Shown: positions 4,538 through 44,710 of the stretch, piece after piece | Layout: each line of letters opens with the position of its first letter | Position numbering within the stretch: the stretch's first letter is position 1 | Virus record (IMG/VR): IMGVR_UViG_3300009034_000011 | Strand: one strand, 5' to 3' | Origin: a virus | Length of the DNA: 64,000 nucleotides | Translations under genes and position numbers: made by a program | The notes under the pieces: model-generated | Told to the model about the DNA's origin: nothing | Seen by the model: only the letters and a program-made list of their open reading frames with translations | Database searches by the model: none

Positions 4538-4692
4538 GGGATGTGGATGTGAGACAATCAGAAGATCTAGAAAAATACAACAAAAACAACACCTTAGGGA
4601 GGATCACACAGGCTAACAAAAACAACAAGCGATTAAGTTTATTGCCTACAACACCCCCGGTGGTAATCTGCTAGCCCTCCGGACCATCCTAC

Positions 4693-7014: not shown

Positions 7015-7020
7015 AATATT

Positions 7021-7832: not shown

Positions 7833-8079
7833 ACACTCAGCTATCACTTACCTCCCTTGCTGCGCTTACACCAGCTACACCTATCTTTCTTGCAACTGGA
7901 TAGTGTATCTTAAGCTCAGCAAGCCCAAAACTCCCTACTCCTTCTTCCCAGATTCGAACTTTCACTACAACAAACTCACCTTCGGTAGTTATTTCCAAGC
8001 CCTCGCCTAGAGCATCTTCCTGGTCTTCAAATATCTCGAGCTGTATTGCTGCCACTATTGCTTATCTCCAAAAGTAAGT

Positions 8080-8156
8080 TGGTACGCGAGGTGGGAGTCG
8101 AACCCACAGTAACCTGATCCTAAATCAGGCGCCGTTGCCAGTTAGGCTACTCGCGC
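8080..8156 (-). tRNA. tRNA with anticodon UAG (Leu by anticodon) but class-I short variable arm
   Basis: Acceptor GCGCGAG/CUCGCGU, anticodon stem CCUGA/UCAGG, loop UUUAGGA, 5-nt variable region, T-arm GUGGG-UUCGACU-CCCAC, A73, CCA. Amino-acid identity is uncertain. Confidence 0.6.
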
Positions 8157-8405
8157 ACCTAATGTCCTTTCCAGTCACACATACTATTCCAGTGACTATA
8201 CGATTTCCGCGGCCTTCTTCCTCTCAACATCGCCTTTACAGCTTGTCTTGTTGCCCTATTAGCCATTCTCTTATAAAACTTACCCCAGCCTGGATTCCAT
8301 CTTCTATGCCAAGGAGGGTCATAGTAGGACCTGCGCCTTTTAGGTTTAATAGGCCTCTCTACCCATCGACCATAATGAAAACGCATATAAGACTCTGCAA
8401 ATTCT

Positions 8406-8831
8406 CTATTCATGGATAAACCACGACCTGATATATCTATCCCAGCGATAACCCCACACCTGCGAAATATACATTATATATGCAACCACTATATCTCTAT
8501 GCAAAGGGGATAGAAACTCTTCAGCCTCCTTATCAGAACACCGACGAAAACATAAGAGATCTTTATCCTTACCACGCCACCACCCGAACCCATACACATA
8601 AGGTACACCAGGTCCTCCACCTGCACGCCAAAGCATAAGACCATGTTCATTCCAGTAATCCACAAGCCAATCATAATCGTGCCCGGTCAACTCTAGCTTT
8701 CCCCTCCATATAGCATACATATCAGCCGCCTGGCGGCCGGCAACGGGATCTGCGGAAGGCCCGCCGATTATGGCGAACAACGCGTCATAGATTGTTTCAT
8801 CAAGTCGATCTAGTAACTTCATAATATTCAT
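8406..8831 (-). CDS. hypothetical protein
   Basis: 141-aa ORF. Confidence 0.4.
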   Translation of the reverse strand: MNIMKLLDRLDETIYDALFAIIGGPSADPVAGRQAADMYAIWRGKLELTGHDYDWLVDYWNEHGLMLWRAGGGPGVPYVYGFGWWRGKDKDLLCFRRCSDKEAEEFLSPLHRDIVVAYIMYISQVWGYRWDRYIRSWFIHE

Positions 8832-9335
8832 ACACCACCAATTGATGCATCACGCCTCTCCAGAAGCTTCACTAACTCACTGGTCTCCCTGAGCATAGCT
8901 ATATTCTTAACTGTACCTAGCCAACATAGCCAGAGGGCGTATGGCTTCGTAGACTCAATCAGGTCCCGCACCAAATCAGGTAGATCGAACCCTTCGCCAG
9001 TCCCGTCACTATACTGCTCGAGATCACCTTCATCATATTCACAGCGCTTATACACTACTCTGTACTCCTCGTTGTCAAGTATTACTTGCTCCCTCATTCC
9101 TTGCTCCCTCATACCAATTCAGTACGTTTCCGGTACTCGCGAACGTTATACGGATCCTCATCTTTACGTATAGCTTCCTTAACGATCTCAACAGAGTGAT
9201 CCGCAAGCCAGAGAACCAATTCAGTACGACTGCGAAAAGCTCCAAGCGCTCGCGCTTCCTCTAAAGTGCATTTCTGCTGCCCTGATAAACTTTGGTCGAT
9301 CGTTGCCATCTAACTTATCTCCTCCCAAAATCTAT

Positions 9336-9411
9336 TGGTGCACCCGACAGGACTTGAACCTGCATCGTTCCGGTTAAAAGCCGGATACCTAGCCAATTAG
9401 GTTACGGATGC
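9336..9411 (-). tRNA. tRNA-Lys (anticodon UUU)
   Basis: Acceptor GCAUCCG/CGGGUGC, anticodon stem UCCGG/CCGGA, loop CUUUUAA, T-arm GCAGG-UUCAAGU-CCUGU, CCA. Confidence 0.75.
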
Positions 9412-9904
9412 ACCCTACCCTACAGGCCATAAAATCAAAACAGGATACGCTCCTTCAGACGGCTCCCGATCGTCGGTTTCATCTTCTGGGTCATAGGGTT
9501 CCTGGTGAGCAGGGTCCCACAGGAGCGTATCACTATAACCATCAAGGGGCTTGTATGCGTTTCCCTCCCCGTCTATAGATAACATAACCTGCCTACCATG
9601 TGGTTGTTTATCAAGTATAGCCTTTAGTTCCTCTACCGTCATTATTCCTCTCCTACACAAACTGTGCACTCAATTTCTCGATTATCATCACGTACCTCAT
9701 TGCCTTTCTCGTCTAGAGAAAGCCAATAACAGTTATGCTTGCCACTATTACTGATATCCGTAACTGGGATGCGTTTTCCTGACTCCAAGAGTAGCTTCTC
9801 TGTCCAATGCCTCCCAGTCCCCGAACTCTCAATCACTTCACCACCTGCTGTTGTTAAAGCCCCACCACGTGTGCGGCGGCAATCGATATACACAGCCTTC
9901 TTCA

Positions 9905-11948: not shown

Positions 11949-12044
11949 ATTGGTGGAGGCGGCGGTATTGAAACCGCGTCCACAGTACCATAATATGAAA
12001 CTAATTCTAATTAGTTCATAGTACCGCGTCGAATCCTTACGCCC
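11949..12044 (-). ncRNA. 96-nt tmRNA-like tRNA-like domain (TLD-only mini-tmRNA / tRNA-Ala mimic)
   Basis: 5' GGGGGCG-UAA-GGAUUCGACGCGG and 3' GGACGCGGUUUCAAUACCGCC-GCCUCC-A-CCA match the conserved tmRNA 5' element (GGGGCUG..GGAUUCGACGGG) and 3' element (GGACGCGGGUUCAACUCCCGCCAGCUCCACCA). The acceptor stem has a G3:U70 pair. The anticodon arm is replaced by a ~40-nt AU-rich imperfect hairpin. Confidence 0.6.
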
Positions 12045-12268
12045 CCACGTTTAGCGAGTTTCTTCAGTCTCTTCTGACCTAACTCTCTTACAACCTCTGA
12101 CCCATTAACTAATAACATAGGCAACTCCCCTAGAGAGAGTTCTCGTAATAACTTCCGAGCCTGGCGAATATAACCCAAACGGGCATAAGTCCCGATCAAA
12201 TCAACTTGCGAATCAAGCGTCCGACCTCTAAAATGGGAAAGAGCCTCTTTGGAAATCCTTATTGTCAT
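12011..12268 (-). CDS. HEAT-like motif protein (paralog family); last 11 codons overlap the 5' end of the tmRNA-TLD-like RNA
   Basis: LGELPMLLVNGSEVVRELGQKRLKKL, then the reading frame runs into GGGGGCGUAAGGAUUCGACGCGG. Confidence 0.5.
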   Translation of the reverse strand: MTIRISKEALSHFRGRTLDSQVDLIGTYARLGYIRQARKLLRELSLGELPMLLVNGSEVVRELGQKRLKKLAKRGGVRIRRGTMN

Positions 12269-19241: not shown

Positions 19242-19333
19242 ATCTAATTAAACGGATTTGGATAGTTACGCATTATATTTTCACCTCATTATATTATATG
19301 CGAAGAATTCAAATTTATCGCAAGCTACTTTAT

Positions 19334-19406
19334 TGGAGGCCACGGCAAGGACTTGAACCTTACGTCCAGAGTCTCCTCTAGCTCTACCCCTGAGTCTTAC
19401 GTGACC
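19334..19406 (-). ncRNA. tRNA-like RNA lacking an anticodon loop (acceptor, T-arm and CCA present; anticodon arm replaced by a 6-bp GAGA-tetraloop hairpin)
   Basis: Acceptor GGUCACG/CGUGGCC, T-arm UAAGG-UUCAAGU-CCUUG, discriminator U, encoded CCA, a D-like CUC..GAG stem, and a central CUAGAG-GAGA-CUCUGG hairpin instead of a 7-nt anticodon loop. Confidence 0.45.
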
Positions 19407-19516
19407 AAAAGAGTGATGCGGCCCTACGGGGTGCGTAATCCCGATTCGACGGACTCACATGGACACAGGACCATGATTACACGCAACCTATGCCGCTCCA
19501 TCTTCGGGCCGCATAA
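19407..19516 (-). ncRNA. ~110-nt structured RNA between two tRNA genes (closed by a 9-bp helix AUGCGGCCC/GGGCCGCAU)
   Basis: No ORF. Long-range terminal pairing encloses internal hairpins (CAUGG-UCCUGUG-UCCAUG; GCGUGUAAUC..GAUUACGCAC). The 3' side ends in CUCUUUU. Confidence 0.35.
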
Positions 19517-21094: not shown

Positions 21095-23050
21095 TTACCT
21101 ATCCTTTTGACCAAAACCGCTTAATCCCTCAGGATATCCCGGCTTTTCTGTGGGTTCTGAGGACTCTTCTGCCTCTTCATCCTCAGGAGCTTCAACCTCC
21201 TTTTCGACATTAACTACAACCTGGGGACCTCCTTCATTAAAGATCTTACCCAGGTCAGGGATGAGTTTCGAGACCTGCTCAACTAAGTCACTGGCATCTA
21301 TACCAGTGGCCCCCAGCACCTCTTTAAGTACCGGAAGTGCTGCACCAGCTCCTAAGATGCCCTTAGCTACTCTACCGAAGCTACCTCCGCCGAGTGCCTC
21401 AAGGCCTCCGCCGCCTCCCAGATCGAGTATGCGAATACTTTCAATCTGTTCAGCCGGCTTCATTAACTGTTCAGCAACAGCCGGTAGCTGCTCAATAAGG
21501 GCAATCGTAATGTCTTTACTGATAATCTTCGGATCAATCCGATTCTCAGCCTCGACCATTTTCTCTTTGCCCTCAGCTAGTGCTCTTGCCTTCTCAAGCT
21601 CTGCTGCAGCCAGTAACTTGATAGCATCAGCTTCATGCTGGGCAGCTTCGAGCTGCGCTTCAGCTACTCGAGTGACTTTATAGGCCTCGGCATCAGCTGC
21701 TTTCTCTTGCACGATGAGAGCGGCCTCCGCGTTCTGACTAGCTGCCACGAGAGCAACCTCTTTCTCGCGTCTTGCCTCTTCAACCTCTTTAGCAGTTACA
21801 ACTTTCTCTTCCGCCTCAGCTCTTAAAGCACTGGCCACAAGCTTCAGTTGGTCTGCTTCTTCACGAGCCGTTTCCCTCTCGGCAACAGCTATCCTACTTT
21901 CAGCAGCGGCAACCTCGACAGTCCGCTTCCGCTCTATCTCGGCGGTCTCAACTGCCTGCTCCTGAGTCACTCGAGCAAGTTCAACTGCTTGCTTTCGCTC
22001 GACTTCGGCGGTCTCGATTGCCTTCCCACGCTCGATCTCACGCTGTTTTACAGCTTCTTCCTGCTCGACGCGTGCAGTCTCGATCTCCTTAGTTCTTGCG
22101 ATCTCAGCAGCTTCAACAGCCTTCTCACGCTCGATCTCACGCTGCTTTACAGCTTCCTCCTGGGCAATACGAGCCTGCTCAACAGCCTCCGTCTGCTTCT
22201 CTGATGCTTCCTTGACCGCTTGCTGCTCCTCGAGCCTATTAGTCTCGATCTCACGCAGCTGTAACTGCTCGGCAACGGCTCGGCCTTGCTCAAGCTCGTA
22301 AGATGCTTTCTTTTGCTGGGTCGTTTTCTCTTGAATACCGAGCTCCGCCCGCAATGTAGCATCTTCACGTAGTACTCTGTTCTCTTCCTCGATCTCCTTC
22401 GTACGGGTCTGCTTCGCCTCGACCTCTCCCTTAATGGTCTGAATGGCCGTCGCATCAAACCTGTTGTCCGGGTTCAGTAGAGACAGTTCTGTTTGATCAA
22501 GGTTGGTAATGGAAACGGTCTCTAGAGTAAATCCGTTTTCCTTCAGATCCTCAGTTGAGGCCTCCTGCACCTGATCGGCAAACTCCATCCGCTTCTCATG
22601 CAGTTCCTGCAACTCCATAGTAGCTGCAACACTTCTTAGGGCACCAACTAACTTACCCTCTAGAAGTTCACTAACGCTGCCGGGGGACAGGATTCTGTCT
22701 CCTAAACTAGCAGCTGCTGCGAGCACGTCCTCTTCATTGGGTTGAACTCTTATGAAGAACTCAGCCACAATATCAACTCGAAGACTATCTTTGGTAATAA
22801 GCGCATCCTGCCCCTGCCGTTCAACCTGTAAGTTCATAGTATTTAATGAAATCATCGACGTCTTACAGGTAATGGGATTGATTAGCTTACCTCCAAAGTA
22901 TGCTCGCTTCTTCTTACCACCGGAAACCACTAGTGCGTTATCCGCTGCAACCTTCCTGTAGAATGCCTTATACGCTATTAGAAGGATTATAAAAAGCGCA
23001 AAGACCACTCCAACCAGGATGTAAGTTGTGGTATTGAATATGGAAGCCAT
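21095..23050 (-). CDS. flotillin-like SPFH/band-7 domain protein with long Ala/Glu-rich coiled coil (YqiK-like)
   Basis: N-terminal TM helix then SPFH core (ALITKDSLRVDIVAEFFIRV...). About 300 aa of EA-rich heptad repeats. Confidence 0.65.
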   Translation of the reverse strand: MASIFNTTTYILVGVVFALFIILLIAYKAFYRKVAADNALVVSGGKKKRAYFGGKLINPITCKTSMISLNTMNLQVERQGQDALITKDSLRVDIVAEFFIRVQPNEEDVLAAAASLGDRILSPGSVSELLEGKLVGALRSVAATMELQELHEKRMEFADQVQEASTEDLKENGFTLETVSITNLDQTELSLLNPDNRFDATAIQTIKGEVEAKQTRTKEIEEENRVLREDATLRAELGIQEKTTQQKKASYELEQGRAVAEQLQLREIETNRLEEQQAVKEASEKQTEAVEQARIAQEEAVKQREIEREKAVEAAEIARTKEIETARVEQEEAVKQREIERGKAIETAEVERKQAVELARVTQEQAVETAEIERKRTVEVAAAESRIAVAERETAREEADQLKLVASALRAEAEEKVVTAKEVEEARREKEVALVAASQNAEAALIVQEKAADAEAYKVTRVAEAQLEAAQHEADAIKLLAAAELEKARALAEGKEKMVEAENRIDPKIISKDITIALIEQLPAVAEQLMKPAEQIESIRILDLGGGGGLEALGGGSFGRVAKGILGAGAALPVLKEVLGATGIDASDLVEQVSKLIPDLGKIFNEGGPQVVVNVEKEVEAPEDEEAEESSEPTEKPGYPEGLSGFGQKDR

Positions 23051-23079
23051 CTTATCCTCCTCTCCGATTTACCACTAAA

Positions 23080-23802
23080 CTATAGCCCCTCAAACTTGGC
23101 TACCACAAATATTTGAGTGGCCGGGTCATAGTCCTCTAAAAGCACCTCGTCGCCGTTAACGGGTTCCTCATCACCTTCCTCCACGCGGCATGCCACTTTC
23201 AACGTAGTGTTATCACCCGTATGCACCGCTACCCTCCCGAAAGCAGAGGTCACACGTCCACTGACAACACGAGCCGTCATACCTACTAAGTCTCGACGAG
23301 ATATAGCAGGCTCACTCTCGGGGAAAATCTTGGCTATCCCCATGGCAAAGTATTTTGTACAGAATATACTAGCGACAAAAGCAATCCCCGCGGAAACCGC
23401 AGCTAAGGGGGGAATAAGCCGTAGAATTCTGTTGCCTATAACCCGATTACAGATCAACCCAACAGCACCATACGAAGTAAGCCAGGTCATTATAAGAACC
23501 ATAAGTGGAACCTTCCCGACGTTAAGAAAACCTAGCATACTCACAAAGACACCAGGGCCGTCTGCACCTACATCATTATCAAACTCCACCTCCGAATCTA
23601 CATCCAGGTCGGTATCGATATCTATATCAGAGTCCACATCGATATCTATATCAGAGTCCACATCAACTTCTGTACTCCCACCAAACTCCAAACTAACTCC
23701 GACCACTTGTAAGAAGGCGAAGAGAAACACCAAAAGCAGCGGAGCAAGAAACATGACGTTGTACCAAGCTGACACAAATTCCCAGAAACCCATTGATGTC
23801 AC
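23080..23802 (-). CDS. NfeD-like membrane protein (YqiJ-like) partner of flotillin
   Basis: N-terminal TM segments and an acidic DxD repeat tract. C-terminal OB-fold segment (VVSGRVTSAFGRVAVHTGDNTTLKVACRV...) as in NfeD short homologs encoded next to SPFH genes. Confidence 0.55.
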   Translation of the reverse strand: MTSMGFWEFVSAWYNVMFLAPLLLVFLFAFLQVVGVSLEFGGSTEVDVDSDIDIDVDSDIDIDTDLDVDSEVEFDNDVGADGPGVFVSMLGFLNVGKVPLMVLIMTWLTSYGAVGLICNRVIGNRILRLIPPLAAVSAGIAFVASIFCTKYFAMGIAKIFPESEPAISRRDLVGMTARVVSGRVTSAFGRVAVHTGDNTTLKVACRVEEGDEEPVNGDEVLLEDYDPATQIFVVAKFEGL

Positions 23803-24071
23803 CCCTTTTCAATACCGCCGGGTATATTTACAACACTGGCAACAATCAAGCGCACCCATATAATAGGGTTCCCACACCCATTTAGTCTTTGCCATACACC
23901 ACGCCGTACCAAATATCGGACGCCAGGTCCAGCTCGAAGATTTAGGAAGGTCAATCCGCTCGTATTCACACCTGAAATGAATACAGGGCGTCCCGAACAG
24001 AAACTTCCTCATCCTCAACAACACAATAGGAGGAGATATAGCGGACTACTTAGTCCGCTATATTCCAGTTG

Positions 24072-25781
24072 CTAGACTCGTCCAAGCAGGAACTCACTAA
24101 TCACATTTGGCGTCGCAGTATCAAACCCTACGACATCAAGCATTCCCACGTCAGTAGGATCTGCTATAGAGATATCATTAGCAGTCATACCTACAACAAC
24201 CAACTTAGCCTCTGGATTGATTGTATTACGGTAGCGATCCAAAGCCTGAGATGGATGCTCGTCACCATACCACGTCTCACTATCTGTATAGACGAGAAAT
24301 GCATCATACACCACATCCGAGTTTTTCTTATGCATTTGCTCAGCCCACAAGATTGGGAGAGCGCAGTTAGTTCCACCGAAGTTAAGCCCATCGGTATACC
24401 TTACAAGGTCGTCTAATCTTTGACGCTTGGACATATTGACTTCCACGAAGCGATGACAAAACGCCATAACAGATACCAAAGGCTCAACCTTGTAAGTAAC
24501 CATCGACATTGCACATGCACCCATCCTTGGCGTCATAGCAGGAATGCCAACGATATTACCTCCGTTCATGGAGCCGCTAACATCGAGACCAATGACGATT
24601 CTCTTGTTAGTTGGTTCAACATTCTTAAAAGCCTTGTAGAAGGCGCTATCTAGCGCGTCAACTACATCACCAACAACATTCCACTCGCCACGACCTCGTG
24701 CTCCACGGCCCTGACCGTAAGTCACCATAGCGGCTAGTACACCAAGTGGGTGTACTCTAGCTTTCGCTAAGATTTCCTCGTCAGTTAGCTGATCGCATAC
24801 CCTTTGGATAACCTTAAAGTTACCGTCAACTAGAAGGCCAACCTTGGACATATTGCCAAGGTTCCGTATCATGGCAGTCATCGGCATGCCACGACCCGCC
24901 GTAAGCATTGCTGCCCAAACCTTCTTATCGCTAAGAAACTGGGTTGGAATGCACTCACGAGGCAAGTTATGCTCCCTGATGAGCTTAACTATATCGGCAA
25001 CGGAGGTAGCTGCCTTGGCTTCCTCGAAAGCTCCGATGAACTTTGGCATAACCTCCCAGTGTTCTGCTTTTGCCTTATCAACTACCCAAGCGTACAGAGC
25101 ACCGTGAGGGCTGATATAATATTTCCCCTTCTCCACTGCATCTGCACTTAAGGTATCTGGTACAGAAACTGCCTTATTTGGGTTTGGGTGTGCAAGTCTC
25201 AACACGTCAAAGTGAGACCAGCCATCTCTCGACTGGTACTTAGCTAACTGGTACGCAAGGCCATCTGCATTTCTACCATTGTACCAACTCGCGATAGCAT
25301 CTTTATAACCCCTACCCCAACCCCGGAATGCTTCGGTATAGGCAACGAGGTGGAATAGATGAGTTCCAATACGAGCTATCTTTGGTATAGCTTGAAAAGC
25401 AGCTCTCCTCGTTTCTATATCCTGTAGAGTTGGATGCTTGCCTCCTGCTCCGAGACACATAGCTAAGACAAAGAGGGCGTAATCATTCTTAGGTGCCCTG
25501 CCGGAATCACTTATCTCAACTATCGTGTCAACTACCCTCTTACCGTCTTCTTTAATACAACGGCGGGTAGAATCGCACGCATCCTTGGTCAGTTTTCTTT
25601 CACTTACGTAATAAGTGCCCCCTTCTGTACCAAGGACTAGAAAACGATTCAATAGCATCCAGTCGTCCACCTTCCAGGCAAACCCTCCGGCATTGTTCAT
25701 CTCCATATCTTCACGGCCTGGAATGCGCTCTGTTTGAGGCGTCTTAATTCTAACCCCTTGCGTAAGTAAATGCTTCCTCAT
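24072..25781 (-). CDS. rsr: Ro60 ortholog Rsr (TROVE domain plus C-terminal vWA with MIDAS motif)
   Basis: 569 aa. C-terminal IVIGLDVSGSMNGG MIDAS motif plus downstream T and D. N-terminal ~380 aa helical, TROVE-like. Flanked on its upstream side by Y RNA-like genes. Confidence 0.6.
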   Translation of the reverse strand: MRKHLLTQGVRIKTPQTERIPGREDMEMNNAGGFAWKVDDWMLLNRFLVLGTEGGTYYVSERKLTKDACDSTRRCIKEDGKRVVDTIVEISDSGRAPKNDYALFVLAMCLGAGGKHPTLQDIETRRAAFQAIPKIARIGTHLFHLVAYTEAFRGWGRGYKDAIASWYNGRNADGLAYQLAKYQSRDGWSHFDVLRLAHPNPNKAVSVPDTLSADAVEKGKYYISPHGALYAWVVDKAKAEHWEVMPKFIGAFEEAKAATSVADIVKLIREHNLPRECIPTQFLSDKKVWAAMLTAGRGMPMTAMIRNLGNMSKVGLLVDGNFKVIQRVCDQLTDEEILAKARVHPLGVLAAMVTYGQGRGARGRGEWNVVGDVVDALDSAFYKAFKNVEPTNKRIVIGLDVSGSMNGGNIVGIPAMTPRMGACAMSMVTYKVEPLVSVMAFCHRFVEVNMSKRQRLDDLVRYTDGLNFGGTNCALPILWAEQMHKKNSDVVYDAFLVYTDSETWYGDEHPSQALDRYRNTINPEAKLVVVGMTANDISIADPTDVGMLDVVGFDTATPNVISEFLLGRV

Positions 25782-25799
25782 AACTACACACCCCCTGTA

Positions 25800-25868
25800 T
25801 TAAGTTGGGCAAGTTATCGGAGTGGGATAGACCGGGATTGCTCCCTGGTGGTCGATAATCCACTTCCT
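25800..25868 (-). ncRNA. Y RNA-like unit 13 (Ro60/Rsr-binding helix), immediately upstream of the rsr start
   Basis: 5' UUGGGCCGGAGGAAGUGGAUUAUC pairs with 3' CCAC-UCCG-AUAACUU-GCCCAA to give a bulged helix. An internal GGGA-GCAA-UCCC tetraloop hairpin is present. The motif matches the conserved Y-RNA 5' strand GGUCCGAUGGUAGUGGGUUAUC. Confidence 0.55.
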
Positions 25869-26309
25869 CCGGCCCAACATTACAAAACCAGCCAGTGGTC
25901 TCCCACAGCGGTCCCGGTTCACCGTGGCTGGCAATAGCGCCCCCGGGTTAACAAGAATAAAGGGCAAATGCTGCTCGTGAGAGTTGGCTTGCGCCAAAGG
26001 CGAGTTAACTACTCCACCGCCCCGAAGGGCAGGTCAGATTGGGTACTGACGTCTCCTCGTTATGAACGATAACTCACGAACGCCGGCCCTTTATTCTAAC
26101 TACCTCATAGAGAGGTATTCTAGTTGTCAGAAGTGACGGAACGGCTTCGCGTTGGATATCTCTAGTAGCAGCGAACAAATGCCTCATCCCATTGAGCTTT
26201 ATATATCGCTTTTTCTTTTTACACCACACCCTCGTATCGTTCCCCGGTTCCCAACGAGCTTGGGGACAAGTATCACATCGTGCCACTATGTCTCACCCCT
26301 TTCGAAACA

Positions 26310-26391
26310 GTTCCGTTATTTAAGATATTGGGCAAATAGTAGATAAAGGAGTGTCAATTTTCGGGTTGATAACCTTCATCCTCCGGCCCAA
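26310..26391 (-). ncRNA. Y RNA-like unit 12
   Basis: 5' UUGGGCCGGAGGAUGAAGGUUAUC with 3' partner CUCCUUUAUCUACUAUUU-GCCCAA. Lies between the HNH gene and a structured spacer upstream of rsr. Confidence 0.5.
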
Positions 26392-26420
26392 TAATAGGTG
26401 CACACTTCACGCTGCCGCAT

Positions 26421-26882
26421 TTAAATATCATAGTCAGAAGCAAAGGCGTCTTCCCACTTCCAGTAGCCCCGCTTCTTAACCGTGCGCTTCCTATGGCAGT
26501 TAGCGCAACACACTTCACATTTAGCTATCTCAGCTTTAATGGTAGCTAGGGCATATCCGTGCGTTACCATTTCTCCAACTTGATAACGTTTCTCCCCACG
26601 CACATGATCAAATTCCAGAACCAATGGATCCGATTCACCACAATCGACACACGGATGGGTATTCAAATAGTGAATCAAAAAAGCTTTATTCGCAGCGATT
26701 CGCCTTCGCATATTCACGCGAACTACCCTCATATAATGGGGCTTATTGTTCTGGAAATATTCCCTATGGTAAGCAGCAACACACGCCTTACACGTATTCT
26801 TTCTGTTCCGTTTAGCCGGGGATCGAAAACTAAATTCCTCCTCCGGCTTCACCTCGTTACATTTTATACACTGCTTATTCAC
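26421..26882 (-). CDS. HNH endonuclease with N-terminal zinc finger
   Basis: CVDCGESDPLVLEFDHVRG ... NCHRKRT HNH motif. CxxC...CxxC N-terminus. Confidence 0.6.
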   Translation of the reverse strand: MNKQCIKCNEVKPEEEFSFRSPAKRNRKNTCKACVAAYHREYFQNNKPHYMRVVRVNMRRRIAANKAFLIHYLNTHPCVDCGESDPLVLEFDHVRGEKRYQVGEMVTHGYALATIKAEIAKCEVCCANCHRKRTVKKRGYWKWEDAFASDYDI

Positions 26883-26902
26883 TATGCTACCTTCTTTAAA
26901 GT

Positions 26903-26978
26903 TGGTCGGGGAGACAGGACTCGAACCTGCAATCTCCAGCTCCCAGGGCTGGCCCGCTAAGCCATTGCGTCACTCCCC
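26903..26978 (-). tRNA. tRNA-Pro (anticodon UGG)
   Basis: Acceptor CGGGGAG/CUCCCCG with C1-G72 typical of bacterial Pro, anticodon stem CCAGC/GCUGG, loop CCUGGGA, T-arm GCAGG-UUCGAGU-CCUGU, A73, CCA. Confidence 0.7.
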
Positions 26979-27109
26979 GACAATATATTGGACGGTGAAC
27001 CCCAACTTTTAGTGCGGCTATGGGAGATGGATGTTGCGGTCCACCGTCCGGAGGCGGATTCCGACGAGTTGTGCGGCTATGGGAGATGAATTGTCGGAAT
27101 CCGCCCGAG

Positions 27110-27181
27110 TCATATATGGGCAAGTGGTTGACAGTGGGAGGAGCCAAATTTGCGGTTCGGTAACCCACTGCCTCCGGCCCA
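27110..27181 (-). ncRNA. Y RNA-like unit 11 (mini Y: Ro-binding helix only)
   Basis: 5' UUGGGCCGGAGGCAGUGGGUUACC pairs with 3' CUCCUCCCACUG..GCCCA. It is followed (27000-27110) by a 13-bp hairpin GGCGGAUUCCGAC..GUCGGAAUCCGCC and a duplicated AUCUCCCAUAGCCGCAC motif. Confidence 0.5.
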
Positions 27182-27449
27182 ATTAACATAATCACTCACC
27201 TGCTGGAACTAAAAGACGCTTCATAGGTTCTGAAGGACTTTCCTGGAGTTTACAATCTCCCAAGTATCGGGATACTGAATCGACAAGAGGAACAGCAACT
27301 GCATAAGCGTTTTTTGTCACAGACAGATCAGCACCCGCGGCAGCTTGCTGCAACTTCTTCGCGACCAATACCATCAGTTCCGTTCGTACAGCCGGTGTCA
27401 ACTCAACAACTTCAAGACTAGCCATACCTTTACCTCACGCCGCAATTAA

Positions 27450-27596
27450 ATGCTGGACAAGGTGTCGCAAATGGGACGCTTTCCGACGCTCCACCACTGA
27501 GCTATGCGCCGTGCGGCCGAACCGTTCAGAGGCACAACTGGAATCGAACCAGTGACATCCGGAATTGAATGGTAACCCACCTACTACGGTCCAGCA
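27450..27596 (-). ncRNA. Y RNA-like unit 10 with permuted tRNA-like module
   Basis: 5' CUGGACCGUAGUAGGUGGGUUACC, then T-arm ACUGG-UUCGAUU-CCAGU, a loop-closed acceptor-like hairpin, D-arm GCUC-AGUGGUGGA-GAGC, then the 3' Ro strand CCCAUUUGCGACACCUUGUCCAG. Confidence 0.55.
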
Positions 27597-27609
27597 AGAT
27601 AAAATCGTT

Positions 27610-27730
27610 GGGCTAAAATTGCCAATGGGTGAAATGGTTCCGGGGGTTGGATTCAAACCAACGCGTATCGCCCTCGGGCGGTGCTCTATCAACTGAGCTA
27701 CCCTGGATAACCCATACAGCAGCGGCCCAA
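27610..27730 (-). ncRNA. Y RNA-like unit 9 with embedded near-complete tRNA-like domain (acceptor, D-arm, mini-hairpin, T-arm, CCA) in normal order
   Basis: 5' UUGGGCCGCUGCUGUAUGGGUUAUC, then UCCAGGG-UA-GCUC-AGUUGAUA-GAGC, then CGCC-CGAG-GGCG hairpin in place of the anticodon arm, then GUUGG-UUUGAAU-CCAAC, then CCCCGGA-A-CCA, then 3' Ro strand CCCAUUGGCAAUUUUAGCCCAA. Confidence 0.5.
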
Positions 27731-27746
27731 CGATGCTCTCTTTCAA

Positions 27747-27821
27747 TTTGGCTGTCCTGGTCGGCTTCGAACCGACAACCCCCTGATTAACAGTCAGGTG
27801 CGCTACCAGTTGCGCCACAGG
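27747..27821 (-). tRNA. tRNA-Asn (anticodon GUU), embedded in the Y-RNA array
   Basis: Acceptor UGUCCUG/CAGGACA, D GCGC/GCGC, anticodon stem CCUGA/UCAGG, loop CUGUUAA, T-arm GUCGG-UUCGAAG-CCGAC, G73, CCA. Confidence 0.75.
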
Positions 27822-28084
27822 ACAACAAGTGTGGGTTGATAGTAAATAAAAGATATGTATAAGACAATATCTCCCGCCTATCAACCCACTCCGGGCAAAT
27901 GGCAGATGAGGTCGAGCATGCACACAATGTACATTAAGCTCTACGATTATTACAGTCCGTCGACCGGTGCTTTTTTGACGGTCCACGCGACCGATGTATT
28001 TATCGTTTATACTCGGTCCACATGACCGAGTACGTTTATCTAGGTCCGCCGACCGTGGTTTCATCGTATGGTAATCCTCATCTA

Positions 28085-28240
28085 ACGGCCCGAATAAGAT
28101 GAATGAACGGACAAGGTGCGGAGTGGACCTTTTTATTGAGCTACCACCCCAAGAACATCGAGGTAGGCTGGACACGAACCAGCAACACTCAGCTTGATAA
28201 GCTGATGCTCTATCCGATAACCCACATCCTACGGTCCGTT
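28085..28240 (-). ncRNA. Y RNA-like unit 8 with permuted tRNA-like module
   Basis: 5' CGGACCGUAGGAUGUGGGUUAUC, T-arm GCUGG-UUCGUGU-CCAGC, acceptor-like hairpin CUACC..GGUAG, 3' strand ..CCUUGUCCG. Confidence 0.45.
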
Positions 28241-28244
28241 CAAG

Positions 28245-28385
28245 AAGATATGAATGGGCAAAAGGTGTCAGTGGATGTGTTCGCGCTGAGCCATTCAGCT
28301 TCGGACGCCATAATGACGCCCGACGGGATTCGAACCCGCAACCTCGCCTCCCTAAGAAGATAACCCACAAGACATCGGCCCATTC
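28245..28385 (-). ncRNA. Y RNA-like unit 7 with permuted tRNA-like module
   Basis: 5' UGGGCCGAUGUCUUGUGGGUUAUC, T-arm GCGGG-UUCGAAU-CCCGU, loop-closed acceptor mimic CGGGCGUC-AUUAU-GGCGUCCG, 3' strand CCACUGACACC..GCCCA. Confidence 0.55.
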
Positions 28386-28394
28386 ATGATTAAA

Positions 28395-28522
28395 TGAATG
28401 GACAAAAGGTTGCACGAAGATGTTTGACGCTCTAACCAGTTGAGCTACTACCTTTCGGTAGGGAAGGACTTGAACCTTCCATCGCCTCATTGGAAGTGAG
28501 ATAACCTTCACGCGTCCGGTCC
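28395..28522 (-). ncRNA. Y RNA-like unit 6 with permuted tRNA-like module
   Basis: 5' UGGACCGGACGCGUGAAGGUUAUC, T-arm GGAAGG-UUCAAGU-CCUUCC, acceptor mimic CUACC-GAAA-GGUAG, D-arm GCUC-AACUGGUUA-GAGC, 3' strand CUUCGUG..UGUCCA. Flanked by the CCAUUCAU-GAUUAA-AUGAAUGG inter-unit hairpin. Confidence 0.6.
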
Positions 28523-28534
28523 ATTCATGCTTAT

Positions 28535-28672
28535 CACGATTAAATGAATGGACAAAAGTGTACAAGGAGTTTTTTACGCGCTCTGGCCGCTGAGCTACCC
28601 AGGCATTCGGAGCCTGGGGTCGGGAATCGAACCCGACGACCTCGCCATTAACATTGGATAACCCTCGTACGT
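28535..28672 (-). ncRNA. Y RNA-like unit 5 with permuted tRNA-like module
   Basis: 5' UGGACCGACGUACGAGGGUUAUC, T-arm GUCGGG-UUCGAUU-CCCGAC, acceptor mimic CCCAGGC-UCCGAAU-GCCUGGG, D-arm GCUC-AGCGGCCA-GAGC, 3' strand CCUUGUAC..UGUCCA. Confidence 0.6.
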
Positions 28673-28674
28673 CG

Positions 28675-28769
28675 GTCCATTCATACTTGTTGTCAACTAA
28701 CAGACGGGCAGGTGGTGTGCGAGGTGCACACGTTTTGGTCTGTCGACCAATGTAATGATAACCCTCGCA
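28675..28769 (-). ncRNA. Y RNA-like unit 4 (mini Y, no tRNA-like module)
   Basis: 5' UGGGCCGGAGUGCGAGGGUUAUC pairs with 3' CCUCGCACACCACCUGCCCG. Internal hairpin GGUC-GACA-GACC. Confidence 0.5.
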
Positions 28770-28774
28770 CTCCG

Positions 28775-28963
28775 GCCCATTAGAGATAGCGACCCCGCTG
28801 CAGGTACTATCCCTATATTTGGGGTGGACAAAGAATGCTAATGGAGTTGACTCCCCTTTGGGGAGCTGCCTAACCACTAGGCTATCCGGGCGCGCGACCC
28901 GAGACTCTCGTCCCGGGCCTGAGCCCGGAATAAGATTCGAACTTATGTGATAACCCATCAACT
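28775..28963 (-). ncRNA. Y RNA-like unit 3 (long form with tRNA-like elements)
   Basis: 5' UGGACCGGAGUUGAUGGGUUAUC, weak T-arm AUAAG-UUCGAAU-CUUAU, CCGGGC-UCAG-GCCCGG hairpin, D-arm GCCU-AGUGGUUA-GGC, CUCCCC-AAA-GGGGAG hairpin, 3' strand ..UUGUCCACC. Confidence 0.45.
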
Positions 28964-28965
28964 CC

Positions 28966-29047
28966 GGTCCACCGCCATATTCGAAACGAGCAGGCAAAGA
29001 AGGCGATAATGGGAAGTCAAATGGTAGATAACCCACTATCTCCGGCC
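28966..29047 (-). ncRNA. Y RNA-like unit 2 (mini Y)
   Basis: 5' UGGGCCGGAGAUAGUGGGUUAUC with 3' partner CCCAUUAUCGCC. Confidence 0.5.
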
Positions 29048-29049
29048 CA

Positions 29050-29147
29050 CCCGATAATTGTCGGGGAGGACTTAATGGGCGAGGGTCGAGTGAGGGAACG
29101 TCAATTTCCTGGTTGATAACCCTCACTCTCCGGCCCATCTAATCTCT
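29050..29147 (-). ncRNA. Y RNA-like unit 1 (mini Y), first unit of the array
   Basis: 5' UGGGCCGGAGAGUGAGGGUUAUC, a 23-nt loop, then CCCUCACUCGACCCUCGCCC forming a long bulged helix. Confidence 0.55.
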
Positions 29148-39565: not shown

Positions 39566-40579
39566 TCATGCACCATTCGCCTTATCGATAAGTTGCTTCA
39601 AAACGTTAGGATTTTCCCTAAGAAAGTCTAGCCACCCCTTTCTAGTCTTTGACTTCTCACTAACCTCCGGCCATAGAAAGTGCGCAGTTCCTTTCTTAGT
39701 AAATGTATCGGTATTAGCCTGAACATAATCAAAATACTCAGCCTCGACATCGTAACCCCTATCGAAATAGAAGTCGATCTCACACTTTTTAAACGGCAGC
39801 GCAACTTTATTCTTGGGAATATTTATACCCATTCTGACACCAACAATATCAGAACCATCCTTTATCTTCGCGCGCTGTTTGACTTCTATACGAATGGAAG
39901 AGTAGAACTTTAAAGCCCTACCCCCCGGGGTCGTCTCTGGATTACCAAACATAACACCAACCCGCATTCGTATCTGGTTAATAAAAATAGCAGCTGTCCT
40001 AGTCTGCCGAATTTTCTCTGAAAGTTTACGTAATGCCTGACCCATCCATCTAGCTTGTAAACCTACATGGTGGTCACCAAAAGCCCCCTCTAGCTCTTCC
40101 CTAGGACATAGTCCAGCTATGGAATCTATCACCACCAAGCCAACACCTTGATCGATACATTTATCTATGGTATCGAAAACGTCCTGGGTACAGGACTGCT
40201 GAGAAACCAATAGTAGTCTCATATCAACATTTAGATTTTCAGCCCACTCAGCCAAGAGTGCATTCTCGGCGTCCATAAACAAACATAGGATACCTTGCTT
40301 TTGAGCCTCTGCAATCGCACTTAAGGCTATAGAACTCTTCCCAGAGCCTTCGTTACCATAAAGCTCCACTATTCTACCTTTTGGAAACCCCTGCACACCT
40401 AAGGCCTCGTTAAGAAGAAAAGAACCAGTAGGTATTACTTCAACAGGTTCAAAGACTCCCTCCTCACCGTACAACATAATGGAGCCTCTATCTTTCCTAC
40501 CCGCCCTCACTGCCTCCGCGATCTCGTGTAGCTGTTGTATCTGCTCCTCCACTTTTAACATTTCCAAACCCCCTAGCAA
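39566..40579 (-). CDS. RecA/UvsX-family recombinase
   Basis: ELYGNEGSGKSS Walker A, LVVIDSIAGL Walker B region, RecA core length. Confidence 0.6.
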   Translation of the reverse strand: MLGGLEMLKVEEQIQQLHEIAEAVRAGRKDRGSIMLYGEEGVFEPVEVIPTGSFLLNEALGVQGFPKGRIVELYGNEGSGKSSIALSAIAEAQKQGILCLFMDAENALLAEWAENLNVDMRLLLVSQQSCTQDVFDTIDKCIDQGVGLVVIDSIAGLCPREELEGAFGDHHVGLQARWMGQALRKLSEKIRQTRTAAIFINQIRMRVGVMFGNPETTPGGRALKFYSSIRIEVKQRAKIKDGSDIVGVRMGINIPKNKVALPFKKCEIDFYFDRGYDVEAEYFDYVQANTDTFTKKGTAHFLWPEVSEKSKTRKGWLDFLRENPNVLKQLIDKANGA

Positions 40580-43065: not shown

Positions 43066-44139
43066 TCATTCCCACACACACAATCCATAATCGTCAAAAC
43101 AGAAGTTCAGAAGCTGTCCACCGTGGTCCTTTAGGGCACGACGGAGAATATACTCTTGACCCCTTTGTGCAAGGAACAGAAGACAGCCACCGCCGCCAGC
43201 GCCACATGCCTTTCCAGCTTGCATACCATTTTCAAGAGCCACCCCAAAGAAATTCTCAACTACCTCGTTTGTGATACTAGGATGTAATTCCTTCTGCCAT
43301 ATCCAGCTCTGATTCATAGCCTTGGCCAACGCATCTATATCATGACCGTAAAACGCCCCCTGGGCTATCAAAGCTGTATTTACAAGCTTCTCAAGTGGTA
43401 AGTGATTCTTACCAGCATCAAATTCTTCATTAACATGTCTGTGAATATCAGATGAGAGACGCGATTGCCCAGTATAACACAAAACTAATCTCTTCTCGAG
43501 CTCAAACCTCATCGACTGGTCGAGAGGAAAAACAGGATTATGAAACACATCATCACCGTGGCATTCCCAACCAGATATACCACCGAAAGCTGCTGCATAC
43601 TGATCCTGCGTACCACTTAACAAGCCTAACTCCTCAGTTTCCAATCTGAAAGCGGTATCAGCTACCTCCCTCTGTGTTGGAAACTTTCCGGCGTATTTCA
43701 TAAGAGCACCGATAAGCGCTACACCTAAAGATGCAGAAGTCCCCAAACCACTACCAGGTGGAGCCTCCGACCTGGTAACTATCTCGATTCCGCCGAAGTC
43801 CTCAAACAATCTCTTGCAGGCCGCTTTCGCAAGGTCCATAGTCCCGTCATACTCTATATCTCCTATAGATTGTGTATGGGCCCATACATCGAGATCCGCA
43901 CTATACATGTAAATGGACCCTTTCTCTACTCTCTCTCGCACAGGATATCCATATCGGCTCGATCTAGCTGTCTTCTCGGGAAGTAGTCTAACAGTAACAT
44001 AGGTGTGCAGAGTAACTGCTGCGTTAACAACGAGCCCTGGGTTCCTCTTCGCAAATTTAGGTACATCTGTCCATGATCCCGCAAAATCTATTCTAACAGG
44101 CGCTCGTGCAATAACATCAGGCCTGCCCATCCTTTTCAC
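43066..44139 (-). CDS. GHMP-family kinase (HddA/fucokinase-like)
   Basis: RAPVRIDFAGSWTDV N-terminus and PPGSGLGTSASLGVA ATP motif. Confidence 0.55.
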   Translation of the reverse strand: MKRMGRPDVIARAPVRIDFAGSWTDVPKFAKRNPGLVVNAAVTLHTYVTVRLLPEKTARSSRYGYPVRERVEKGSIYMYSADLDVWAHTQSIGDIEYDGTMDLAKAACKRLFEDFGGIEIVTRSEAPPGSGLGTSASLGVALIGALMKYAGKFPTQREVADTAFRLETEELGLLSGTQDQYAAAFGGISGWECHGDDVFHNPVFPLDQSMRFELEKRLVLCYTGQSRLSSDIHRHVNEEFDAGKNHLPLEKLVNTALIAQGAFYGHDIDALAKAMNQSWIWQKELHPSITNEVVENFFGVALENGMQAGKACGAGGGGCLLFLAQRGQEYILRRALKDHGGQLLNFCFDDYGLCVWE

Positions 44140-44710
44140 CTACCTTGATAACCTCCCCGAAGAACTCGTTGCTAACCCTAACGGGGAGTCTCCTATGGAA
44201 GATCTCGATGTTCAACATAACGGCACCCTCCGATATTGTCAAAACTATACCACGTATACCTAAACTGGGGATAACAACCTCGTCTCCTATATCAAAAGTG
44301 AGCTTTGGTGGTTCCGGTACACGCGACTCTAGAACGGCAAGTCGTTGAATGTCCGCTTGTGGAACTACAGAGGGCCAACTTTGCCAGTTTTGAAGCCACC
44401 CAAAAACGTGAGGAAACTTCGGTTTCTTTAACGCTGCATATAACTTATAGCTGAGGATAGCTTCCACAAACAGGTACCCAGGTATCATCGAGGTCCGTCG
44501 CTCTTTCGCAGCACCATCCTTGGCAAAGTACTTAATGGTAACTTCAGGAACCCATAAACGCCTAACTAACTCGTAATGAGCTATAACACCTGCCGTCCCA
44601 TAAAAGTGTAAAACCAACGAAGCCTTCTTCTCGTACGAACCTTCAACGCGCAAAACGTGCCATCTATACCCTTTGCGAATAACCCTTATAGGGTGCCGTA
44701 CAAGAAGCAT
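44117..44710 (-). CDS. NusG-like transcription factor (NGN domain plus KOW)
   Basis: RRTSMIPGYLFV resembles the NusG NGN motif (RKFFPGYVLV). C-terminal DIGDEVVIPSLGIRGIVLTI KOW-like motif. Confidence 0.45.
   Translation of the reverse strand: MLLVRHPIRVIRKGYRWHVLRVEGSYEKKASLVLHFYGTAGVIAHYELVRRLWVPEVTIKYFAKDGAAKERRTSMIPGYLFVEAILSYKLYAALKKPKFPHVFGWLQNWQSWPSVVPQADIQRLAVLESRVPEPPKLTFDIGDEVVIPSLGIRGIVLTISEGAVMLNIEIFHRRLPVRVSNEFFGEVIKVGEKDGQA

Follow-up and report, generated by a model that had tools for sequence, protein, structure and literature searches.

Known Ro60 and Y RNA systems

Y RNAs bind Ro60 and tether the exonuclease PNPase (PMC4201824). In the Rsr-YrlA/YrlB systems of Salmonella Typhimurium and Mycobacterium smegmatis (RF02553; PMC4201824), the gene of the Ro60 ortholog adjoins the Y RNA genes, and one or more of the Y RNAs contain a permuted set of T-arm, loop-closed acceptor-like stem and D-arm, both as in the phage locus described here. 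However, these systems have one or two units against 15 in the phage array, whose helix resembles the metazoan sequence type (GGNCCG..GGGUUAUC) more than the YrlA consensus; the phage locus also lacks a nearby RtcB/RtcA, and many of its units have no tRNA-like domain. The Rsr of D. radiodurans, which forms the RYPER complex with Yrn1/Yrn2 and PNPase, is the best structural match of the phage Ro60 (2NVO), although that system is cellular rather than viral and has up to four RNAs; its Y RNAs have been called "more metazoan-like", with several small RNAs encoded upstream of rsr (10.1101/312249). Ro60 genes with adjacent Y-like RNAs are likewise found in mycobacteriophages, Bacillus phage G and Caulobacter phage CcrColossus (PMC4201824), and in Thermus phage phiLo with Yrl1/Yrl2, where the phage Ro60 binds both Y-like RNAs and host PNPase, a hijack of the latter being suggested by the authors (PMC12135203). 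For these phages, one or two RNAs have been reported per phage, compared with 15 here. Metazoan Y RNAs (RF00019) and nematode stem-bulge RNAs (sbRNAs; RF01656) share the helix architecture and much sequence with the phage units, the RF01656 consensus CGGUCCGGaG....UGGGUUAUC / CCCA....CACCAACUUGACCG aligning to units U2 and U12, but they are transcribed by Pol III in eukaryotes and have no tRNA-like modules. Nematodes have sbRNA families with multiple genes. Pairs of Ro60 and Y RNAs had been described in phages before, and the present locus is an expanded version of the bacterial/phage system.

The Ro60 gene

The 569-aa ORF at 24072..25781 (minus strand) is, judged by its sequence, a complete, full-length Ro60 (Rsr) ring protein. 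The first-pass annotation had proposed this identity from a vWA MIDAS motif and a helical N-terminus, and it was borne out by Pfam matches to TROVE (E 5.3e-40) and vWA_Ro60 (E 2.9e-57). The top PDB match was 2NVO, the Rsr of D. radiodurans (E 2e-121), other Ro60 structures (9NEN, 1YVP) and PHROG 850 were also matched, and the MIDAS residues D400/S402/S404/T471/D500 are invariant across the nearest relatives. Ro60 homologues occur in 356 INPHARED records; identity to cultured-phage proteins reaches at most 43% for this Ro60 and at most 31% for the DNA polymerase of the same phage. The window, that is, the whole 64-kb stretch of DNA analysed from this large uncultivated phage, encodes neither PNPase nor RtcB nor any other known partner of Ro60.

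An array of 15 Y RNA-like units

Upstream of the Ro60 gene and on the same strand, 15 Y RNA-like units were counted (U1 to U15, all coordinates on the minus strand). The motif G[AG]CCG-N-..GGUUAYC is present in 14 copies, with one GGAUUAUC variant, all on the minus strand at 25.8-29.14 kb, and is absent elsewhere on that strand of the 64 kb. The 13 units recognised at first are all among the 15; U9 (27890..28092) and U14 (25957..26095) had been missed. Unconstrained MFE folding gave a common terminal stem in 15/15 units, as expected from the earlier proposal that a bulged Y helix closes each motif-started unit. In this stem of Ro60-binding type, a lower stem is followed by a bulged C and a G(G/A/U/C) dinucleotide, then by an asymmetric loop and an upper stem of 9 bp; the 3' dinucleotide facing G(G/A/U/C) is UU in 12 of the 15. 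In both Xenopus and D. radiodurans, Ro60 binds at the bulged Y helix. A helix scanner returned 14 clustered matches in the real sequence, compared with 0.15 per shuffled 64 kb; U9 and U10 were taken as Y units from the scanner and folding alone. The spacers separating the units measure 6-36 nt, and two tRNA genes are interleaved with the units.

By their interiors, the units comprise six mini units, five clean and one degenerate YrlA-type permuted units, one unpermuted unit with CCA, and two with other hairpin sets. The six mini units, which the first-pass annotation had also described as helix-only, were all recovered (E 6e-9 to 2e-3) by an independent covariance model, R2, built from 34 sequences of other loci and none from the window; it matched nothing else in the 64 kb. 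These are U1 (29072..29137; helix with a small loop, MFE fold, R2 47.1 bits, E 1.9e-8), U2 (28988..29053; R2 40.7 bits, E 5e-7; RF01656 33.5 bits; RF00019 21.8 bits), U4 (28701..28784; one internal hairpin, R2 29.9 bits, E 1.5e-4; RF01656 27.2 bits), U12 (27116..27183; R2 36.9 bits, E 4e-6), U13 (26325..26392; R2 49.4 bits, E 6e-9) and U15 (25802..25881), which is separated from the Ro60 start codon by 20 nt (R2 25.1 bits, E 1.7e-3; RF01656 22.7 bits).

Arm analysis upheld the earlier statement that about half of the units carry tRNA-like modules. In U3, U5, U6, U7 and U11 the permuted module is clean and follows the YrlA order (T-arm, closed acceptor-like stem, UA, D-arm) at the correct spacing. 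U3 (28821..28976; fold, arm analysis, RF01656 22.6 bits) has a T-arm at 28930-28946, a 7-bp acceptor-like stem closed over a 31-nt insert, a D-arm at 28868-28882 and an extra triloop hairpin; U5 (28545..28684; arm analysis, RF02553 27.5 bits, E 0.006) has a T-arm at 28620-28636, a closed acceptor-like stem and a D-arm at 28580-28595. The T-arm and D-arm lie at 28463-28479 and 28429-28445 in U6 (28394..28528; RF02553 32.3 bits, E 2.4e-4) and at 27537-27553 and 27488-27502 in U11 (27450..27598; RF02553 30.5 bits, E 8e-4; RF01656 32.4 bits), while U7 (28251..28387; T-arm 28323-28339) aligns to RF02553 over its full length (32.8 bits, E 1.7e-4). Five permuted modules had been described before; their order is confirmed, but U3 had been overlooked and U8 (28104..28243; fold, RF01656 25.4 bits) is degenerate: its T-arm is accompanied by hairpins resembling an anticodon arm and an acceptor, its D-arm is degenerate, and its RF00005 match (33 bits, 28159-28231) has a poor acceptor stem. 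The single near-intact tRNA-like domain with CCA noted previously corresponds to U10 (27606..27732; fold, RF00005 42.1 bits at 27638-27707), where the Y helix surrounds an unpermuted acceptor, D-arm and T-arm with a 3-nt loop in place of the anticodon loop and a terminal ACCA; ARAGORN called no tRNA there. The 203-nt U9 (MFE fold, scanner match) contains four CGGUC-N3-4-GGAC(C)(G) hairpins, no tRNA-like part and no match to Rfam models, and the non-tRNA interior of U14 (fold, RF01656 33.5 bits, E 3e-4) forms several tetraloop hairpins.

The array is located in a 30-tRNA island, which it shares with the anti-defence gene Tad6. The Asn and Pro tRNA genes interspersed among the units, previously taken as genuine, were called by both ARAGORN and Rfam: tRNA-Asn(GUU) at 27749..27824 (RF00005 66.6 bits) and tRNA-Pro(UGG) at 26903..26979. 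The array also includes a 77-aa ORF (27192..27425, minus strand) with coding-like codon usage (LLR 0.31) and no Pfam or PHROG match, and is interrupted by an ORF for an HNH (homing-type) endonuclease (26421..26882, minus strand; phrog_2255, E 1.9e-34). A candidate 16th unit in the island, 20 kb from the array (4598..4689, minus strand), has the canonical C-GG-A geometry in the scanner, an MFE z-score of just -0.46 and no covariance-model match.

Covariation and Rfam models

The proposed helices covary. In the stem alignment of the 15 paralogs, 92.3% of cells are paired compared with 35-47% in slid registers, a figure biased towards structure because the alignment was curated by hand and bulged bases were dropped from four units. 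Compensatory double changes occur in 14/20 helix pairs (at one lower-stem position, 10 units have G-C and five have A-U), and the covariation score was 0.665 against 0.254 in shuffles, with 0/500 shuffles reaching it. With E values up to 0.22, the Rfam Y families (YrlA, Y_RNA and nematode sbRNA) matched 11/15 units. A single match, that of U12 to RF01656 (38.2 vs 38 bits), reached the Rfam gathering score, so that by the Rfam criterion the units are not members of these families; membership of RF01656 is not meaningful either, since U12 alone reaches the score and the family is nematode-specific. Matches to YrlA scored about 27-33 bits (maximum 32.8) against a gathering score of 69. The predicted identity of the units as Y RNAs rests on covariation and the independent model instead of Rfam membership.

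Comparison with other Ro60 loci

The Y helix was found on the Ro60 strand in 65/87 metagenome loci and 52/80 IMG/VR loci, with just five opposite-strand matches across the latter 80. Scanned in the same way, Ro60 loci outside the window have 0-6 units, usually 1-3, and the largest other arrays have 7 units in a 131-kb viral contig (L094) and 8 in a Chloroflexota MAG (L271). The 15-unit array is the largest among about 460 comparison loci, as the first-pass annotation had anticipated in placing it far above the usual one or two Y RNAs, although this understated a background that extends to 7-8. Two related loci (L085, L082) have three units lying between a promoter-like site and Ro60; in L094, the 7 units and a tRNA precede Ro60, then follow 5 tRNAs; and the 11-kb piece L397, from a 277-kb phage, has 6 units among 18 tRNAs, with no Ro60 in the piece. 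L094, L397, L271 and L119 (148 kb) share the helix family and mix mini with YrlA-type units, and the three phage loci (L094, L119, L397) have arrays in or beside tRNA clusters, like the 15-unit array; they differ in having 5-8 units and no stop-free frame over the array. The window is the extreme end of a continuum of array sizes. Since the same helix family lies beside rsr in hundreds of loci, the 15-unit array represents a roughly two-fold record expansion and not a new kind of locus.

Proposed function and alternative explanations

We consider it likely that the locus encodes a phage Ro60/Y RNA ribonucleoprotein system whose Y RNA set is unusually large and diverse. No recognisable promoter or terminator separates units in the array. 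The closely spaced units and the interleaved tRNAs are probably transcribed together into one long precursor or a small number of them, which host tRNA/RNA-processing nucleases would cut into mature RNAs. Each Y RNA would dock through the common helix on the outer face of the phage Ro60 and gate its RNA-binding cavity, while the module specific to each unit would link the ring to a partner of its own. By analogy with Rsr-Yrn1-PNPase and phiLo Ro60-Yrl-PNPase, PNPase or another 3'-5' exonuclease of the host could be one partner; those of the tRNA mimics could be tRNA-handling enzymes.

It is considerably less probable, and in our view unlikely, that the units are genuine Y RNA mimics acting mainly as sponges or decoys for host Rsr, PNPase, tRNA-recognising enzymes or toxins, so that copy number would outweigh module diversity and the units would not mainly be adaptors for the phage Ro60. 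The high copy number, the tRNA mimics that keep elbow and acceptor end without an anticodon loop, Tad6 in the same island and the host-PNPase hijack put forward for phiLo (PMC12135203) would suit such a role; however, a cognate Ro60 is retained directly downstream in this and related phages, no host target was identified from the window data, and all units differ (pairwise identity <=72%), which favours distinct roles over dosage.

A 567-codon stop-free frame (27435..29138, minus strand) exactly covers U1-U11 and tRNA-Asn, and raises the very improbable reading that this stretch is a real gene for a 567-aa protein and the Y motif a by-product of a repeated peptide. Over its 1701 nt the frame is free of stops, where the remaining two frames have 38 and 29 and 22 would be expected even with position-specific composition (P(0) = 1.6e-10). 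The 12 blocks all share one phase (P about 2e-6); GGGAGAG, which resembles a Shine-Dalgarno sequence, precedes the ATG by 7 nt, and the stop falls within the Shine-Dalgarno sequence of the following ORF. Against this, its codon-usage score is 0.045 compared with 0.18-0.51 in real genes, GC is nearly flat across codon positions (0.48-0.56), and the amino-acid composition is random-looking. The Y motif moreover occupies different frames from unit to unit, the frame passes through a canonical tRNA-Asn, the RNA helices covary, no homologue of the translation was found among 5.8 billion proteins, and every frame of the arrays at other loci contains stops. The frame has no coding signature and stays unexplained by the Ro60/Y RNA model.

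That the units are decaying tRNA genes or tRNA debris unrelated to Ro60 is equally improbable: T-arm or D-arm sequences do occur in seven units of an array set among 30 tRNAs, with U8 and U10 above the tRNA gathering threshold, but the eight units without any tRNA-like part still have the helix, the clean units have permuted arms and a loop-closed acceptor stem, and it is the helix, not the tRNA part, that is common to the 15 units and hundreds of Ro60-linked loci. With a Ro60/Y RNA ribonucleoprotein system as the favoured explanation, the outcome would be that the phage redirects RNA surveillance or decay during infection.

Ro60 Ortholog and Phage Context

The product of the minus-strand gene 24072..25781 is 569 aa long; its residues 29-352 match the TROVE (HEAT-repeat ring) domain (PF05731, E 5.3e-40), and its C-terminal part matches the Ro60-type vWA domain (PF25045, E 2.9e-57). 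These profile searches substantiate the first-pass annotation, which had read a vWA MIDAS motif in this gene and an N-terminus compatible with TROVE/Ro60. The MIDAS residues (DxSxS..T..D; D400, S402, S404, T471, and D500) are invariant across the closest relatives in alignment A1. Characterised Ro60 structures were matched with near-complete coverage (2NVO, E 2e-121; 9NEN, E 5e-110; 1YVP, E 4e-109), and the alignments to D. radiodurans Rsr (2NVO), human RO60, and Xenopus Ro60 run from one end of the protein to the other. Judged by its sequence, the product is a Ro60 ortholog. Its three closest protein relatives (P0001, P0002, and P0003) share 100, 74, and 69% identity, relatives from the metagenome scan reach at most 53% identity among the matches listed, and an IMG/VR scan with this single protein gave no match.

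The window also encodes a phage-type replication module, comprising a PolA-UDG fusion, RNR, a UvsX-like recombinase, a DnaB helicase, and a primase, together with 30 tRNA genes, every one on the minus strand. The best match of the polymerase among cultured phages is only 31% identical, so the window belongs to a large phage, or an element resembling one, that has not been cultivated. The window encodes no known Ro60 partner, and RtcB, RNA ligase, Pnkp, and PNPase were sought without success among the window ORFs scanned. Directly downstream of Ro60, 21095-23802(-) encodes an odd pair for a phage, a flotillin/SPFH protein (651 aa) and a YqiJ/NfeD-like membrane protein. Two protein genes lying amid the tRNAs, 295-906(-) and 3251-3877(-), encode a Tad6-family Thoeris inhibitor (PF25188, 1.8e-41) and a ClpP-like protease.

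Shared Helix of the Y RNA-Like Units

Fourteen copies of G(G/A)CCG-N-..GGUUAYC and one GGAUUAUC variant were located, every one of them at 25.8-29.14 kb on the minus strand. The array consists of 15 units (U1-U15), which precede the Ro60 gene on its own strand at distances from 20 nt to 3.4 kb; the array described in the first-pass annotation is real, and its count of 13 had left out U9 and U14. Identity between units is at most 72%, and spacers in the dense part of the array measure 6-36 nt. The array is interrupted by tRNA-Asn, tRNA-Pro, a 77-aa ORF with coding-like codon usage (orf77, 27192..27425(-)), and an HNH endonuclease gene.

Unconstrained MFE folding gave all 15 units a single terminal architecture, in which the 5' and 3' ends pair into a bulged stem. 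In these folds the lower stem (..GG(G/A)C / G(C/U)CC..) has 7 bp or more and is followed by a bulged C, a G(G/A/U/C) dinucleotide then faces a dinucleotide on the 3' side, which reads UU in 12 of the 15 units, and above these come an asymmetric internal loop and a 9-bp upper stem ending GGG-UUAYC. The stems of the 15 units were aligned at equal length, with hand curation that took out one bulged base in four units; 92.3% of the cells in this alignment are paired, compared with 35-47% in registers slid by 1-3 columns. Both sides change in 14 of the 20 helix pairs, and the observed covariation score was matched by none of 500 shuffles. Folding and covariation thus agree with the earlier proposal that a Ro60-binding-type helix closes each unit. 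The 15 RNAs carry the helix through which Ro60 is bound in characterised systems, and binding of these units to Ro60 is predicted.

A covariance model built from 34 non-redundant sequences, all from loci other than the window (model R2), matched exactly six short units in the 64 kb and nothing else (E 6e-9 to 1.7e-3): U13 (49.4 bits), U1 (47.1 bits), U2 (40.7 bits), U12 (36.9 bits), U4 (29.9 bits), and U15 (25.1 bits). The long units lie beyond its reach because their interiors span 75-156 nt. Another model (R1), derived from trimmed window stems, was dropped, as true units scored 16 bits or less owing to insertion penalties. The Rfam comparison proposed in the first-pass annotation gave YrlA and sbRNA matches that, with one exception, lie below threshold. 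No unit reached the gathering threshold of Y_RNA (RF00019, 38 bits), the best being U2 with 21.8 bits, or that of YrlA (RF02553, 69 bits), for which U5, U6, U7, and U11 scored 27.5-32.8 bits and comparator loci likewise at most 49 bits. With nematode sbRNA (RF01656, threshold 38 bits), U12 alone reached the threshold (38.2 bits), while U2, U3, U4, U8, U11, U14, and U15 scored 22.6-33.5 bits; as this family is defined on nematode genes, a match indicates a common helix and not membership. Most long units are matched by Rfam Y families under their gathering scores, and U9 and U10 were recognized by folding and the helix scanner only.

Interior Modules and Neighboring Structured Elements

U1, U2, U4, U12, U13, and U15 are mini units of 66-84 nt, barely more than the helix. 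Inside the Ro60-binding-type stem of U3, U5, U6, U7, and U11 lies a permuted module in which a T-arm (T-loop UUC(G/A)A(A/U/G)U) is directly followed by a loop-closed acceptor-like stem of 5-7 bp and, after a UA spacer (AA in U7), by a GG-loop D-arm; the acceptor-like loop has insertions in U3 and U11, and U3 has an extra triloop hairpin. This order of T-arm, acceptor-like stem, and D-arm defines YrlA, for which tRNA-type nucleotide modifications and behaviour as a substrate of RNase P and the CCA-adding enzyme have been reported (PMC4201824). U8 combines a T-arm and an acceptor-like hairpin with a degenerate D-arm, and scores 33 bits against the tRNA model (RF00005) with a mismatched acceptor stem. 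The interior of U10 is an unpermuted tRNA-like domain (RF00005, 42 bits) with an encoded ACCA after the acceptor stem and a 3-nt loop where the anticodon loop would be. A cloverleaf with a 7-nt anticodon loop was found in neither U8 nor U10, and ARAGORN calls neither. With five permuted modules, the degenerate U8, and the unpermuted U10, the earlier statement that about half the units contain tRNA-like modules holds. Nothing tRNA-like is present in U9 (203 nt), which has four CGGUC..GGACCG hairpins, or in U14, which has several tetraloop hairpins.

Several other structured elements were observed. Between tRNA-Gly and tRNA-Ser, 20 kb from the array, 4598-4689(-) is a possible 16th Y-like unit (GGAUGGUC-C-GG-A-GGGCUAGCAG-AUUACC ... 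UUGUUAGCC-UGUGU-GAUCCUCC); its helix geometry fits, with weak folding support and no covariance-model match. Scanner matches at 19246-19502 and 39848-40003 were ruled out as Y units by folding. At 19334-19406(-) lies a stand-alone tRNA-like cloverleaf similar to the domain enclosed by U10. Its acceptor stem has 7 bp, it possesses a T-arm and encodes UCCA, and in the place of the anticodon arm it has a 6-bp stem capped by a GAGA tetraloop; ARAGORN makes no call, and a 97-nt structured hairpin (19417-19513) lies just upstream. Between U12 and tRNA-Pro, two adjacent, very stable hairpins (26985-27106(-); MFE -54.8 kcal/mol, z = -5.8) have the identical 18-nt sequence CAUCUCCCAUAGCCGCAC in both loops, a motif that 383 other loci lack and for which the window offers no complementary target. 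Finally, a 96-nt match to the tmRNA model at 11951-12046(-) (60.8 bits, gathering score 47; no ARAGORN call) is limited to the tRNA-like ends, which enclose a short hairpin; no tag reading frame is obvious, and the element is a mini-tmRNA-like gene.

Comparison with Other Ro60 Loci

Phage Ro60 genes are common, with a homologue in 356 INPHARED records, and Y RNAs adjoining phage Ro60 have been described in mycobacteriophages, Bacillus phage G, CcrColossus, and Thermus phage phiLo (PMC4201824, PMC12135203). A two-strand helix scanner, which finds 14 of the 15 units in the window and gives 0.15 matches per 64 kb of shuffled sequence, was applied to approximately 460 other loci. Among 87 Ro60-anchored metagenome loci, the largest same-strand cluster held no unit in 22, one in 31, two in 21, three in nine, four in two, five in one, and six in one. 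Among 80 IMG/VR Ro60 loci, the Ro60 strand held none in 28, one in 30, two in nine, three in 10, and four in three, and the opposite strand, serving as control, gave five scanner matches in all; same-strand linkage of units to Ro60 therefore also holds at other loci. Among the matches listed, motif-seeded IMG/VR loci reached a maximum of seven (L094) and six (L397), and 120 motif-seeded GTDB genome loci a maximum of eight (L271, a Chloroflexota MAG). Many comparison contigs are short, and their counts are lower bounds.

Two loci with Ro60 56-58% identical to that of the window (L085 and L082) have exactly three units each, at least one of YrlA type and at least one mini unit, flanked by a promoter-like site on one side and Ro60 on the other. 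In L094, seven units with a tRNA-Arg inside the array are followed by Ro60 (47% identity) and then five tRNAs. L397, a piece of a 277-kb IMG/VR phage contig, has its six units scattered singly among 18 tRNAs over 11 kb (3664-9449(-)), with no Ro60 gene on the piece (no ORF >357 aa). Y-like units are also scattered singly among tRNA genes in L396, a piece of a 465-kb IMG/VR phage contig. In huge phages, tRNA islands may regularly include Y RNA-like genes.

Mini Y RNA-like genes of 60-74 nt occur beside rsr in many bacterial phyla and phages (e.g., L001 1755-1817, L271, L312, and L355), with at least 50 distinct sequences among the comparison loci. They have a metazoan-like helix (CGGGCCGGAG..GGGUUAUC / CCC..CA.ACUUGCCCG), and their sole Rfam matches at gathering score are to the nematode sbRNA model (RF01656).

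The Ro60 ortholog, the 15 helix units, and the 30 tRNAs sustain the core of the first-pass reading, a phage-borne Ro60 with a Y RNA-like array in a tRNA island. Its view that the array goes far beyond one or two Y RNAs needs tempering: the array is the largest scanned, and others reach seven or eight units among the matches listed. The window is the largest example, by about two-fold among the loci scanned, of a recurrent arrangement and not a new kind of system. In it the known phage/bacterial Ro60/Y RNA system is expanded to a record size and highly diversified, and no paper describing such Y RNA arrays was found in the literature.

A Stop-Free Frame across U1-U11

A frame of 567 codons without a stop (ORF567) runs from an ATG at 29138 to a TGA at 27435 on the minus strand and spans exactly U1-U11 and tRNA-Asn. 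The ATG directly follows an in-frame TAG and lies 7 nt after an SD-like GGGAGAG, and the TGA falls inside the SD of the next, coding-like ORF (orf77). The two other frames of this strand contain 38 and 29 stops. From position-specific base composition 22 stops would be expected in the open frame (P(0) = 1.6e-10), and none of 20,000 shuffles was stop-free. When divided into 12 blocks, each block has exactly one open frame, all 12 in phase (P ~2e-6).

The least strained reading of this frame, a speculative one that we consider improbable in itself, is that selection has kept the U1-U11 and tRNA-Asn block open so that the Y RNA/tRNA precursor is also translated, ribosome transit being the function and the peptide irrelevant. 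Transit could shield the 1.7-kb non-coding stretch from Rho or RNases, allowing the downstream genes and Ro60 to be expressed. Alternatively, release of the Y RNAs could be inversely coupled to translation, so that they would mature when host defences stop translation. A tRNA island generally designed to be translated through was rejected, as no long open frames surround its other tRNAs and eleven other Y RNA arrays have stops in every frame, none being stop-free. A protein gene is judged very unlikely, given the lack of homologues among 5.8 billion proteins and of a coding signature: the codon-usage score is 0.045 against 0.18-0.51 in real genes, the amino-acid composition looks random, and the conserved RNA motif falls in differing frames from unit to unit. 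Were selection for ribosome transit the true explanation, ORF567 would be a dual-use non-coding RNA array within a selected ORF.

Proposed Mechanism and Implications

The spacing and common strand of the units suggest that they would be co-transcribed with the tRNAs and then cut out by host nucleases. A scan of the array strand for sigma-70 promoters and intrinsic terminators gave nothing above shuffled expectation, and none between units. A 12-bp perfect hairpin (AUAUAGCGGACU..AGUCCGCUAUAU) at 24036-24063(-), 8 nt past the Ro60 stop codon and with no clear U-tract, may mark the end of a transcription unit. An ORF at 44117-44710(-) matches a transcription-antiterminator PHROG (phrog_6386, 2e-12) and could bear on the transcription of long non-coding stretches in this phage.

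Each Y RNA would then dock on the phage Ro60 via the common helix, gating the Ro60 cavity, and its own module would contact a partner, possibly PNPase by analogy with RYPER and phiLo, with the tRNA-mimic modules contacting tRNA-handling enzymes. The Y RNAs of the array might instead act as a decoy or sponge, which is possible but judged less likely than the adaptor role because every unit is different.

The survey indicates that a metazoan-like helix family, including mini Y RNAs of ~65 nt, is common beside rsr across bacterial phyla and phages and is overlooked by the curated Rfam thresholds, and that large phages repeatedly put Y RNA-like genes in tRNA islands. For RNA biologists, the value of the window lies mainly in its panel of Y RNA modules and its stop-free frame. 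On the need for several Y RNAs per organism, known bacterial and phage systems offer just one to four for comparison. With 15 divergent Y RNAs, this single phage operon is a natural panel for testing Y RNAs as interchangeable Ro60 adaptors. Its units combine one Ro60-binding-type helix with a permuted tRNA mimic, a CCA-bearing tRNA that lacks the anticodon, other hairpins, or no module at all. Selection on the stop-free frame, if real, would also tie translation to the biogenesis of non-coding RNA in an unexpected way.
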